In this document: piece by piece, positions 10,861 through 15,362 of the stretch | Layout of the letters: each line of letters opens with the position of its first letter | Numbering within the stretch: the first letter of the stretch is position 1 | Assembly: GCA_000165425.1 (NCBI GenBank) | Contig: CT868174.1 | Location: 434,001-498,000 of the forward strand | DNA length: 64,000 nucleotides | Direction of reading: 5' to 3' | Origin: Paramecium tetraurelia | Lineage: Eukaryota | Notes under the pieces: model-generated | Database searches by the model: none | Told to the model about the DNA's origin: nothing | Seen by the model: the letters and a program-made list of their open reading frames with translations, nothing else | Translations under genes and position numbers: made by a program

Positions 10861-12147
10861 TCATTTAATACTAAATGTTCTCTTTCGCAATGGGGATTTT
10901 TTAGAAATTCTCATTTATTTAACGCAATTAATAAAAGTCTAATCTACGCATTTCATTGGGACATAACCAAAAGTCTAACGTAATCTATCTGGGTTTAATA
11001 GATCAGTTGATAATAATGATCTTTGGGACAAGTAATCTTAAGATTGCACTTAACCAAATTTCACCTTAAATCTGATTGGAATTTGTGGAATAATTGGTTA
11101 AAAGTGAATTTCTTCTATTTATTTTGGAGCATCTTACACTTTAACCATTTAGAGATTGATTTTTTGTGATATTACTTTATCTCTGATTTTCTACATGGAA
11201 CTCCGATGATGTAATTGTCTCTATGATAAGGCTCTTGGTTTAGAGATGGTTGAGAATAGTCTATAATTATCAATAAACTGCCGTGCACAAATTTTCAATA
11301 ATTTGCATGAGGATTAGGTTTGTGCCTCTGAACTTCTTAATTAATGAGGGCAATCCTCATAGTATAATTCCATGTCACCAAAATATTGGTTAGTAGTAAG
11401 ATGAGTGATTCCATCGATTTTATTGATTTAGTTTTTTGATTCACCAGGTTCTTCTATTCTTCTGAATACTTTCAATTTAACTTCACCGCTGACTATAAAG
11501 TACACAAAATCAATGGGCTAATTCTATTTAAAGATGTAAGTGAAGGGAGAATAATACTATTCTTCGCAATTCATTAACATCGCTAATAGAGCACTGTCTT
11601 TCCAGCCTTCAAAAAGTGAGATCGATTTTAGAAAATTAAATTTGTAGTCGTTCTATTGTTAGCCTGCCAATGATAAGATCTTTTGATAAGTGTCATAAGT
11701 AATAACTGCTAATTCTAATTTTGTAATGGAACAAACAGAAGCATTTCTAGGTCCTTTCTGATGCAATGCAACTTCGCCAAAATATGTTCCTGCTTTTAAG
11801 ATGTTGACAAATTGATATTAGAAGTACCTTCTCTCAGTAATCTCTTGGAATGTGTGATATTTGCCAGGATGTGGTTTTGCATCAGCATTTTTTGGTTTGA
11901 ATATGCCTACTGTACCGTCGATTATAAAATACATTCTTCTGCCTATGTCACCTGCTTCAAAGATAGGCGTAAGTGGTGGGTATTTCTCATATTTGATTTA
12001 TTCAAATAGCATCAGATATAATTGGGCATCTAATTTAGATTTCAAGTTGCGAATATAATCGAATTGCTTAAAAAAGTATTCTTCTAATTCTTGGATTTGA
12101 TCATGATTCCTTAATTCAGTCTGCAGAATAGTTTTAATTTCTTGCAT
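10861..12147 (-). CDS. Tandem cyclic nucleotide-binding domain protein (~428 aa)
   Basis: Intronless code-6 ORF: IFEAGDIGRRMYFIIDGTV...GTYFGEVALHQKGPRNASV, second domain VYFIVSGEV...YFGDME. Confidence 0.9.
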
Positions 12148-12185
12148 TATATATTAATAACTAAAACAATGAGTTAAATAAATTA

Positions 12186-14382
12186 ATGAAGAGTCAAAGT
12201 ATTTACAAGAAATCCAATCCAATCAGGTCCACTTGCATCAAGTCCATTGAAGCTAACCAAGAGTTCTACTTGGCAGTTATTGAATAATAGATGTGTGTGA
12301 GTATCTGTGCTTATAATGAATAAACTGGAGAAGTCTTTGTCACTTAATTTTTAGATTGCACCACTTTCAATATCACTTCATCCACAATCTTGAGATTTGC
12401 CCCCAAGATCTTGATCTCTATTGAAAATAATGAAAAAAGCATGTTTTTTAAATAATTGGAAGATGAATTGAATGATACTCTGATCTACTTTTTACCTCTC
12501 AATGTGTTGCAAATTAAATTCGAACTAAATCAATTTAGTAAATTTGTAAAATAATTAAATTAACTCCAATTATGCTATACTGCATTGTCCTACACTGTCA
12601 ATTAGCATTTGAATATCCAAATCACCAATTTTCCAGTTCAATTCTACAACATTAAAGAGGTCCTAGTATTCAACATTTAAACAACATTGAGTTTAGACAT
12701 CTTAAATCAATTGTATAAATTATTCAAGCCCATAACAAATGGAGGTAAGAGATTACTTAAAGCAAATCTACTCTAACCTTTTAGTACTTTACAAACGATT
12801 CACATAAGATAATAGAATGTAAAGGAAATGCTTGGCAAAGATGATTCTACTATTCAATCCTTGAAATCACACATGTTGAAATTCAAACAAGTTGATACTT
12901 TGGCTTGTTAATTGCAGAGCAAAAGTACTAAACTATAGGATCAATTATAATAAATATTCAAGATCTACAATTTCCAAAAGGACATAATAAATTTTACACA
13001 TTACTTGAACGATTAAAAATTGAATAATATCATGGATATAGATATCAATGGGATTTTAATGAGTGATGAATTCCAGAATATTCTAAAATAGATAGAGTAA
13101 TACATCGATGTAACTTTATAATTGAATAATATCGAGGAAGACACTCTATTTTTCATTATGTTAAACGAGAAATCAAATAATTTAAAATAGAATCGATTAT
13201 AATTTATAGCATTAAGATAGGAAATAAACAATCTATTTTAAAGGTTGATGTCATGTTTTTGTCTAAATTTGAAATGCAAGAAGCTTAAGACCAATGATAA
13301 TTCAATAAAATGTCTGAAAAGTGGGTACATCTTTGAATTATCTGTAAATGAAGCAAATAGAAACAACATAAATGAATTAGATATCAAGAGAATAGTTGAA
13401 AAAGAAAATGATTCAATCTCCTTTATTGATAAAAACAATAAAAAATACAGCATTCTTACTGAGAAACTTAAGGATCTAAACAATAAACTGAATGATTGCC
13501 AAATGAACATATTATAAGAAACCTAACTCTAAGTTAACAATTTGTATGAACAGATGCAGAAGTTTTGTTCTTGGATATTTTCTCTTAATTGTTTGATCAG
13601 TCAATTTGATATAGCACTTTGTATAAGAGATTATACAATTTAAAATGTATCAAATAAGTAATAGATGATATTCCCTCAATTTGATCATAACTAATTCATT
13701 ATCAAGGATGCGTCATACCTATACTCTGTGAATTCCCATGATACATTTAATAAGTTAACAGTTTCATTCAATTAATTTAATATCATTTATGATTACAAGG
13801 AGTGTTTATCAGAATAATTGAAACTAATAGGACAACTGATCATACTCTCACAAATTGGATGTACATTGCCTTGTTCACAATTCAAATAACAGTTGCTAAG
13901 TTGTATATACACTCATTTTCAAAAATATACTATCTAAAATTTAGCAGAGAGGTAATCTTCATTTACTGCTGAAATTTAATCATTGAACAATTTATTGGTT
14001 TCTGAATTGCGTGATTCCTTAATTCTATGTGACTCCTTAGCAATTTCATCTTCACATGAATCGAATGTGTCCTTTAGCATTTCATTTTTGGAGGCTATCT
14101 TCAAAAAAACTCACTTTGGTTTGTTTGGAACATAAAATTCTGATATCATGCAAATCAATGATTTAATTTAATGCAAATGCATGATATCAAATACTAATTA
14201 GATTGACTAAATCTAATCGAACGAATTGGAAGTAATTATTATTTGTTATCTAGCAAATTCTTGACGAGGAATTTAACTTAGATTACAAGTTGAAGTTACT
14301 AAATAAGCTACAATAAACCTTTGATTTCCCTTCAACCTTTTGTTTGATTTTTGAACGTAACTTTAATAAATAATATGCTTGA
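12186..14382 (+). CDS. MSH4: Divergent MutS homolog, MSH4-like, with degenerate ATPase motifs (~724 aa)
   Basis: Connector-like LAVIE..VSICAYNEQTGEVFVTQFLDCTTF; core TNGGKRLLKANLLQP..IHIRQQNVKEM; ATPase scaffold LIILSQIGCTLPC, SSFTAEI, SLILCDSL. No mismatch-binding domain I seen. One 22-nt intron at 14232-14253. Confidence 0.72.
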
Positions 14383-14568
14383 CAATACTAATAATTATTA
14401 TTTATTTTAAATTAAATACAGACTTTGATTTCTTATTCAGATTCAATCTAATCTTATGGAATTGTTATCAAAGAACGAGAGTGGGTATATTTTACAATTA
14501 CATAAGAAAATCAACCATAACTCTTAATTATTAAGTAGAATATATTTTATTACAATTATTAATGCTAT

Positions 14569-15362
14569 TCATAACTCATTACTACTGATTACTCTTGCTA
14601 CAATGACTGTAATATCATCGCTTTTTCCTCCCATAAACCTAATTCTTGATTTTTGAGCTCTTTTGGCAAAAGGAGAGCTGTATGATTTATCTAACGAATA
14701 TTAGAAGGATGTTTTTGCCAATAGTTAAGCAGAACTTTGACTGACTCCATATTCATTGATAATCTTCAAGATTTAATTCTCATCAAGATTATCATACAAT
14801 CCATCTGAACCCACTATTACAATATCATTGATCTGTAAAGTGTGCTCGAATTCTTAGGCTAATTAAGCACTATCTCCCTAAGGTCCCAATTAAAATGGGA
14901 AATTAAAGGAATGCTATTACTCCTGTGATTGATGCAATATTTCTTGATTTCGGATAATCGTATATCCACAGTCTCCAATATTAGCCACTTTCAGTATATT
15001 ATCAATTAACTTCATTAAAACCAATGTACTGCTTCCTAAAATGTGATTTGTTAATTCTGAAGCAATCTGCATAATCTCTTTAGGATTATCCAAATGAGAA
15101 TATTCCTTAATGCTTATGTTAAACCACATCTGTACTTTTCACAAAGAGTTTTTGAATACTTGGATGGATCAACTCCTTGATTATTCCAACCTCCAACTCC
15201 ATCTGCCACTGCTAGTAAATTCTCGTTTGCATAATAGGCATCCTCTCCTCCTTTAGCTACTTTATCTGGATGCGGAATGATGTGAACACTATTTACTCAA
15301 ATTCTATACAAGGATTGAAATTGCAAAGAGTAGACTTCAATAATAAATAATAAAAAAATCAT
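14569..15362 (-). CDS. PP2C/PPM phosphatase, PTC7 type
   Basis: IPHPDKVAKGGEDAY, AVADGVGGW, ANIGDCG, GSDGLYDN, GGKSDDITV. Introns at 15289-15309 and ~15115-15137. Confidence 0.92.

Follow-up and report, generated by a model that had tools for sequence, protein, structure and literature searches.

An MSH4 ortholog of Paramecium tetraurelia with replaced nucleotide-site motifs, a candidate pseudo-ATPase of the MutS family

Can one subunit of the meiotic MutS-gamma clamp dispense with its own nucleotide site? In eukaryotes such as yeast and mammals, canonical MSH4 is one subunit of MutS-gamma and MSH5 is the other; the division of labor between the two sites of this complex is unsettled, and a lineage in which the whole MSH4 site was lost would be a natural experiment. 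We analyzed a 64,000-nucleotide stretch of the Paramecium tetraurelia genome (GenBank assembly GCA_000165425.1, contig CT868174.1, positions 434,001 to 498,000 of the forward strand; hereafter, the window, in whose own positions all coordinates are given) that carries a candidate for such a loss at 12186..14382 on the + strand. The gene encodes an expressed and strongly constrained MSH4 ortholog, and the alignment of its family indicates that the residues of its own nucleotide site are replaced. An earlier reading of this DNA, made from the letters alone (the sequence-only reading), had proposed an intact MSH4-like gene without recognizable ATPase motifs. Published work is cited here from the portions of each paper that our literature search returned.

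Identification of the MSH4 ortholog

Under the ciliate code (table 6), the + strand carries a 692-codon open frame (12186..14264) in which 42 TAA/TAG codons are read as glutamine. Left unspliced, the frame opens with the ATG at 12186 and is closed by the TGA at 14262–14264; removal of a 22-nt intron moves the stop to the TGA at 14380–14382 and gives a product of 724 amino acids (aa; 12186–14231 joined to 14254–14382) that is letter-for-letter identical to P0001, a P. tetraurelia macronuclear protein of 724 aa. The product of exon 1 (682 aa) was likewise 100% identical to P0001 in a database search. The span matches exactly the 12186..14382 that had been proposed from the letters; the gene, with its one 22-nt intron, is laid out as follows.

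12165..14394, + strand: approximate extent of the mRNA (contig starts at 12165–12207, contig ends at 14367–14394)
12186..14231, + strand: exon 1, codons 1–682 of the MSH4 ortholog (open reading frame list, identity to P0001, colinear mRNA contigs)
14232..14253, + strand: 22-nt intron (GTA...TAG, 82% A+T), found by pattern and absent from all five contigs that span it
14254..14382, + strand: exon 2, codons 683–724 and the TGA at 14380–14382 (splice model, P0001, contig ends at 14367–14394)

Membership of the MutS family was established by the Pfam domain MutS_V (42.1 bits vs. a cut-off of 30.2; E 1.2e-10). The match places residues 545–662 on profile positions 15–131 of 188, i.e., it begins beyond the P-loop, and its score lies below those of all 58 relatives scanned (71–293 bits). 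When 1.84 billion cluster representatives were searched exhaustively with phmmer, 112 matches were returned at E up to 0.001, with the P. primaurelia ortholog the only one at E up to 1e-30; so few matches, and a single strong one, indicate that the Paramecium protein is very divergent. Among the thirty matches that were looked up, three carry MSH4 names (P0013, a JGI name; P0025, a microsporidian 'MutS like protein 4'; P0030, Candida subhashii), P0098 (near rank 98) is an MSH5, and P0076 is an MSH2.

In a quick LG+G4 tree of 80 full-length matches, a split with 100% SH-aLRT support divided 52 MSH4-type rows, the Paramecium protein among them, from the remaining 28. In an LG+C20 mixture-model tree of 33 rows, the Paramecium protein fell inside a 26-row MSH4 clade (support 100/100) together with named MSH4s from a bird, Candida, and a microsporidian and with the JGI 'MSH4', and two MSH5 rows (100/99; a frog sequence among them) and three MSH2-like rows stood outside it. 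The bird MSH4 and frog MSH5 references came from a search seeded with a Stentor protein, which returned no other named ciliate. Forcing the Paramecium protein to group with MSH5 was rejected by the approximately unbiased (AU) test (delta lnL 36.3, p 0.00026), for which the grouping was named after the tree had been viewed and the question itself had been set beforehand. Profile comparison with hhalign gave a probability of 99.8% (E 1.8e-28, 609 columns) against seven MSH4-clade rows, four of them named MSH4, and 45.5% (E 2.1e-4, 411 columns) against three MSH5 rows, the two reference sets being unequal in depth (7 vs. 3) and the tree holding only two MSH5 rows. The alignment to the MSH4 rows is continuous over residues 10–658 and starts at the connector; the mismatch-binding domain I (MutS_I) gave no match at E up to 1, as is the case in the MSH4 subfamily.

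Two other assignments were considered. Tree, AU test, and hhalign rejected an MSH5 or a new MutS class, and the same three analyses gave no support to an MSH5 lead that had come from a generic Protein Atlas MutS cluster (MutS5_N in 37% of its members). By descent, the gene is the P. tetraurelia MSH4 ortholog, and the label 'MSH4-like', previously given without any search, is borne out by the 100/100 clade, the AU p-value of 0.00026, and the hhalign E-value of 1.8e-28. The protein thus shares with canonical MSH4 the same clade (100/100), a 609-column profile match that begins at the connector and reaches the ATPase domain, the lack of domain I, and the motifs G-x-R-L-L-x-x-N-L-L-Q-P, Q-I-G-C-x-x-P, and S-x-F-x-x-E. 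Unlike canonical MSH4, it has no P-loop Gly/Lys, catalytic Glu, GRGT loop, switch His, or C-terminal Y-G.

Loss of nucleotide-site motifs

The MSH4-clade alignment comprises 55 rows (5 from Paramecium and 50 others), and column counts were taken over 46 of the other rows. Columns common to at least 75% of these 46 rows were treated as conserved; there are 71 of them, and the Paramecium protein keeps 35. The regions concerned are given below in order along the gene.

12741..12779, + strand: domain III motif GGKRLLKANLLQP, retained; T184, G187, R189, L191, L196, and P198 fall on columns that 37–46 of 46 other rows conserve
13698..13757, + strand: IIKDASY ... HDTFNKL (relatives: G/A-R-H-P and F/V-P-N-D); H-P pair lost, N522 kept
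13776..13823, + strand: former Walker A region FNIIYDYKECLSEQLK, residues 531–546
13788..13811, + strand: former P-loop YDYKECLS (relatives: G-x-N-x-S-G-K-S/T), one residue shorter, without Gly and without Lys
13845..13874, + strand: LSQIGCTLPC, retained, a structural motif that follows the helix of the P-loop; G558 in 46/46 and P562 in 44/46 other rows
13956..13976, + strand: SSFTAEI, retained, an S-x-F-x-x-E motif that lies between Walker A and Walker B; S591, F593, and E596 each in 44/46 rows
14031..14051, + strand: former Walker B and loop DSLAISS (relatives: D-E-L-G-R-G-T), residues 616–622; Asp kept, catalytic Glu lost
14127..14135, + strand: GTQ (relatives: A/S-T-H), residues 648–650; switch His lost, H650Q vs. 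44/46 other rows

Walker A G-K occurs in all 50 non-Paramecium rows and in none of the five Paramecium rows. Walker B D-E and the switch T/S-H are each found in 47 of the 50 and again in none of the five. At the former P-loop, which also carries a one-residue deletion, G536D, N538K, G540C, and K541L are set against columns conserved in 44–46 of 46 other rows. In the Walker B region, D616 is invariant, and E617S, G619A, R620I, and T622S replace residues conserved in 37–44 of 46. Further upstream, H511 is replaced by Y and the adjoining P is deleted (H kept in 38/46 and P in 40/46 other rows) in a stretch that we take to contact adenine. T184, G187, R189, L191, L196, P198, G558, P562, S591, F593, E596, D616, E636, and T649 are kept. 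The S-x-F-x-x-E motif presumably acts in trans at the ATP site of the partner subunit, and the domain III motif is also invariant in fragments of other Paramecium-like species.

In no alignment does the Paramecium protein show an intact P-loop. In the phmmer alignment to a human MSH3 structure, the P-loop 'iitgpnmggkssyikq' stands opposite 'iiy-dykeclseqlk' of the query, and 'deLgrgts' is aligned with 'dsLaisss'. Transcript contigs are colinear with the genome over the motif region, leaving no hidden splicing or editing; record 7 of run X3 (described below), which spans 12998–14394, has 0 differing letters, and its sole gap is the 22-nt intron. The positions at which the sequence-only reading had placed the replaced motifs proved correct to the base, and the scaffold elements it had listed as retained (SQIGC.LP, SSF.AE, and GKRLL..NLLQP) correspond to LSQIGCTLPC, SSFTAEI, and the domain III motif. 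As judged from this alignment, the residues with which the MSH4 family builds its nucleotide site are all replaced in the Paramecium protein.

A site that still binds nucleotide through non-canonical residues, in the manner of some atypical kinases and ATPases, would fit the kept D616 and T649 and the fact that the P-loop replacement is itself conserved, with C-L-x-E-Q-L-K-L in the former P-loop region common to P. tetraurelia and a distant ortholog (L001, see below). We nevertheless consider it very improbable, given that five elements are lost jointly (H-P pair, P-loop G/K with the deletion, catalytic Glu, GRGT loop, and switch His) and that no lysine or glycine-rich loop is left at the site.

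Transcription, duplication, and purifying selection

Four public runs were mapped on positions 12000–14600. Three consist of contigs (X3, X5, and X9), taken as RNA-derived since these contigs are spliced and confined to the gene, and the fourth (X21) consists of raw poly-A paired reads. The contigs lie within about 12165–14394, with zero depth at 14436–14522, and the 22-nt intron is missing ('left out 22') from all five contigs that span 14232 in X3, X5, and X9, which identifies them as spliced transcripts. In X21, first mates map to the - strand over the MSH4 gene (depth up to about 9), and the upstream gene is the one place where they map to the + strand, an orientation indicating that the library is stranded and that the MSH4 RNA is most likely from the + strand.

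Compared with the window, a further group of contigs shows differences at 93 of 742, 14 of 141, and 175 of 1370 bases; these contigs, the second set, lack the same intron. Among the 40 of ~279 differences that were listed, 36 codons are touched, 30 synonymously and six non-synonymously, and at all six non-synonymous codons the second contigs encode the residue of P0003 (GSPATT00037600001 / XP_001436560.1), which identifies the second set as the whole-genome-duplication copy (ohnolog). The duplicate proteins differ at 39 of 724 residues, and at 2 of 131 within the ATPase core (residues 530–660). Constraint is therefore strongest over the dead ATPase core, and the dead domain is the best-conserved part of the Paramecium MSH4 protein. 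With pS ~0.5 and pN ~0.03 (428.7 synonymous and 1743.3 non-synonymous sites), the ratio of non-synonymous to synonymous divergence (dN/dS) is 0.03–0.05, a rough figure because the duplicate's sequence is visible only in part. The sequence-only reading had named a dN/dS near 1 with no expression as the pattern that would speak against a functional gene; the rough ratio to the duplicate is 0.03–0.05, and the gene is transcribed and spliced.

The very long branch and the low Pfam scores might also be expected of a gene heading to loss under relaxed constraint after duplication. This explanation is effectively refuted by the rough dN/dS between duplicates that are ~12.7% apart in bases, by the transcription and splicing of both copies, and by the wider aurelia complex: both duplicates are kept in P. 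octaurelia, and the frame is intact and the motif strings are identical in all five aurelia-complex proteins (two from P. tetraurelia, one from P. primaurelia, and two from P. octaurelia). The gene is transcribed and spliced, is not decaying, and is under strong purifying selection. From the loss of the motifs in an MSH4 ortholog that is expressed and under selection, we infer that Paramecium MSH4 is a natural pseudo-ATPase, predicted from its sequence to be unable to bind or hydrolyze ATP.

Three minor features of the transcript data were recorded. CAA and TAA are swapped between the duplicate transcripts at glutamine codons 4, 242, and 312 (12195, 12909, and 13119; 3 of the 30 synonymous codons), an interchange that directly supports TAA as a glutamine codon in the MSH4 gene. 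In X21, loose ends of ~9 letters occur in five raw reads behind 12922, within a patch (12909–12928) that contains six of the listed duplicate differences; these are most likely duplicate-copy reads clipped by the aligner. Contigs of both copies (X3, X5, and X9; 12879–13027) break alike at ~12906 and 12998–13019, with 141- and 38-base pieces between, which looks like assembly-graph bubbles between near-identical paralogs and no biological joint.

Age of the loss and nearest relatives

A metagenome scan with a 67-aa alignment gave 216 pattern matches, from which a single locus was obtained (a scan with the whole protein matched 89 stretches, none of which was confirmed). This locus, contig L001 (1888 bases), carries a Paramecium-like ortholog that is 58% identical over 516 aa and has conserved synteny, with the same cyclic-nucleotide-binding (cNMP-binding) neighbor as in P. 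tetraurelia head to head with it (L001 2–250, - strand). The L001 sequence extends barely past the place of the P-loop, where it reads NVAYSHQGCLPEQLKL, likewise without G-K-S/T. At the GRGT and T-H places, short fragments of other relatives (36–67% identical) have S-S-S-H-E-S-N ... G-S-S and S-S-S-Y-E-T-N ... G-S-V; the T-H readings GSS and GSV come from fragments P0012 and P0040, which belong to other species. Together, the motif losses in L001 and in these fragments indicate that the loss predates the aurelia complex. The N-terminal coding part of L001 lies in two frames (open reading frames 111–398 and 325–1887), which suggests a short intron near codon 40 (about 325–400) that is lacking in P. 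tetraurelia.

The distant ortholog also bears on whether the gene could be an extra, divergent MSH4 paralog, with a canonical MSH4 of intact ATPase elsewhere in the genome. Room for such a gene is left by the survey of P. tetraurelia MutS genes, which was confined to protein databases, and by the insensitivity of the word-indexed searches: a 4-sequence profile search missed three of its own four queries and returned bacterial MutS and MutS2, and a single-protein search returned only three Paramecium clusters. Nevertheless, an extra paralog seems unlikely. The exhaustive phmmer search gave just 112 matches, and the Paramecium records among the thirty looked-up matches (P0002, P0003, P0152, and P0153) are all of the MSH4 family; these thirty include all 13 non-Paramecium rows of a 15-row subclade (95) in the quick tree, namely a Stentor-like set, a dinoflagellate row, P0006, P0008, P0009, P0065, P0054, P0091, P0021, and P0025. 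In addition, the published name 'Msh4-1', as far as the titles go, would imply two paralogs and so fits the duplicate pair, and the syntenic ortholog L001 shows the same loss despite its distance.

Other relatives have lost parts of the site. The closest full-length relatives found outside Paramecium are the metagenome proteins P0006, P0009, P0065, and P0008, which are sisters of the Paramecium protein in a 6-row clade (95/95) of the mixture-model tree. They have C-x-V-P-C in common with it and, like it, have lost the GRGT loop (D-E-P-F-D-N or D-N-I-G-T-T). Unlike Paramecium, all four keep the P-loop G-K-T and score 71–127 bits with MutS_V (42 bits in the Paramecium protein). P0006, P0009, and P0065 also keep D-E and the His, so that only their GRGT loop is lost, whereas P0008 retains G-K-T but reads D-N and S-T, with Glu and His both lost. 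Two unrelated rows of the MSH4 clade (P0042 and P0095) have likewise lost the Walker B Glu and the switch His and kept the P-loop. Judged from these sequences, loss of the MSH4 hydrolysis residues may be recurrent (P0008, P0042, and P0095), and the series from loss of GRGT only, through loss of Glu and His, to total loss in Paramecium hints at a stepwise decay of the MSH4 site.

A candidate single-site MutS-gamma

On balance, we regard it as probable that Paramecium MSH4 retains the MutS scaffold without its own nucleotide site and serves as the non-catalytic partner of Msh5 in a single-site, MutS-gamma-like clamp. According to this proposal, the connector, core, and ATPase-domain fold would be kept as a scaffold while the nucleotide site itself is gone, and Msh4 would dimerize with Msh5 into a clamp that acts in the micronucleus on intermediates of meiotic recombination. 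Of the dimer's two composite ATP sites one would survive, made up of the Walker motifs of Msh5 and, in trans, the S-x-F-x-x-E motif of Msh4, whose S591, F593, and E596 would complete the Msh5 site; this single site would drive the clamp. The proposal derives from the composite build of MutS sites and the trans action of S-x-F-x-x-E, both taken as background on the family. The retained columns G558, P562, S591, F593, E596, and D616 cluster in dimer-facing scaffold motifs of the ATPase domain. If the model is right, the complex would be like heterodimeric ABC-type ATPases with a degenerate site, in which one subunit gives only the trans motif; those enzymes, however, belong to another family, and their degenerate site usually still binds ATP, whereas in Paramecium the P-loop itself is gone.

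Yeast ATPase-domain mutants show an asymmetry in the same direction, the hydrolysis residue of Msh4 being dispensable and that of Msh5 essential. In the portions cited, the predicted hydrolysis mutant msh4-R676W has wild-type spore viability and msh5-R685W is null (Nishant et al. 2010, PMC2928781), and human MSH4 is reported to bind ATP less well than MSH5 (PMC2928781, PMC6553527). In Paramecium itself, citing passages place Msh4 and Msh5 in gametic nuclei during meiosis I as well as meiosis II and report that their silencing leads to substantial retention of internal eliminated sequences (IESs; PMC11385659, PMC10700549). Both statements fit the suggestion of the sequence-only reading that the protein could be a non-catalytic partner or a repurposed factor. 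For P. aurelia, the cited excerpt gives measured crossover interference, the deficit being 50% at 22 kb (PMC13085455). Tentatively, a MutS-gamma with a single nucleotide site, to which Msh4 lends the trans motif, may support meiosis and crossover interference and feed IES targeting; we hold this wider role to be possible rather than probable.

Several points weigh against the single-site clamp. The Paramecium stem branch is long (2.62 substitutions per site vs. a median terminal branch of 1.02), and it joins other long branches (P0008; P0006, P0009, and P0065; 95/95), a warning of long-branch attraction. The sequence-only reading had named the absence of any MutS_III/V match as a refuting result; MutS_V is above its cut-off (42.1 vs. 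30.2), and MutS_III is not (27.6 bits vs. 34.1, E 4.2e-6), nor is MutS_II (17.7 bits). The Pfam scan gave no match to MutS_IV at E up to 1, and the clamp domain is thus without Pfam support, although the hhalign alignment to the MSH4 rows runs unbroken over residues 10–658. The Paramecium protein has nothing equivalent to the C-terminal Y-G motif, which 39–40 of 46 other rows conserve, and because the region that carries it helps MutS proteins to dimerize, the dimer interface may be altered. The composite nature of MutS ATPase sites, with S-x-F-x-x-E of one subunit reaching the site of its partner, enters the argument as background. No Paramecium MSH5 was found among the word-indexed or phmmer matches, the word-indexed searches being insensitive, and the pairing of Paramecium Msh4 with Msh5 in a single-site clamp is therefore a prediction. 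The yeast Walker A mutant msh4-G639A is null (PMC2928781), which indicates that yeast Msh4 needs ATP binding and that a total loss exceeds the known asymmetry. In the same excerpts, Walker A mutants of either yeast subunit are null and only the Msh5 hydrolysis residue is essential (PMC2928781), and the conversion of MutS-gamma into a sliding clamp is attributed to ADP-to-ATP exchange in both subunits (PMC6553527).

Some of these points would suit a repurposed factor that acts independently of Msh5, as a static DNA or chromatin scaffold in meiotic micronuclei without ATP control; such a factor might aid germline transcription or the production of the scan RNAs (scnRNAs) that guide IES excision, and not act on crossover intermediates. 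The missing Y-G region, the retention of only 35 of 71 conserved MSH4 columns, and the very long stem branch would fit this idea, as would the stress that citing papers lay on IES retention and on 'non-canonical', not understood functions after MSH4/MSH5 silencing, and the citing passage in which new macronuclei (MACs) still develop in MSH5-knockdown cells. On the other hand, knockdown of MSH4 and of MSH5 alike gives IES retention, and the two are grouped as meiosis-specific in the cited passages, which fits a joint complex; the kept columns cluster in dimer-facing motifs, the ATPase core is the best conserved region between duplicates (2/131 residues differing), and crossover interference exists in P. 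aurelia (in the cited excerpt). We therefore consider an Msh5-independent role rather unlikely and prefer the single-site clamp with Msh5. Were the protein to act without Msh5, a recombination clamp would have been recruited into programmed genome rearrangement.

Relation to published work

The suggestion that ciliate MSH4-like paralogs might already be catalogued was right: in the portion cited, P. tetraurelia is scored as having MSH4 and MSH5 and as lacking DMC1 (PMC5570047). Judged from the species, the family, and the presence of two paralogs, the gene very probably corresponds to a member of the Msh4-1/Msh4-2 pair in the literature. Rzeszutek et al. in 2022 (BBA Mol Cell Res 1869:119239) reportedly described the knockdown and localization of P. 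tetraurelia 'Msh4-1' and Msh5. The identifiers of the ohnolog do not occur in the literature searched. In the same literature, which includes passages citing the Msh4-1 study, as far as its text was covered and with the primary study itself outside that search, no printed mention was found of ATPase loss in Paramecium MSH4, and 'MutS' does not occur together with 'pseudo-ATPase'. A preprint considered as a precedent (bioRxiv 10.1101/2025.11.07.687317) was set aside because the part covered concerns RAD50 and TOP6BL, not MSH4. What is known is therefore the gene family, which has been catalogued and studied by knockdown; its recognition as a conserved pseudo-ATPase looks new.

If the prediction is true, this would be the first natural pseudo-ATPase of the MutS family and a ready-made separation-of-function allele for the role of the second MutS-gamma ATP site. 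It would occur in an organism for which MSH4/MSH5 silencing, localization, and a genome-wide recombination map already exist, according to the cited excerpts.

Neighboring genes in the window

Upstream and divergent from the MSH4 gene, positions 10861–12147 (- strand) encode a protein with two stretches of cyclic-nucleotide-binding domain (Pfam cNMP_binding, E 7.4e-23); the start codons of the two genes are separated by a spacer of 38 bases (12148–12185). Downstream and convergent with the MSH4 gene, a 186-aa open reading frame (14569–15129, - strand) shows weak similarity to PP2C (E 3.7e-6) and SpoIIE (E 5.9e-6) phosphatase domains and probably represents a single exon, the gene itself being larger.

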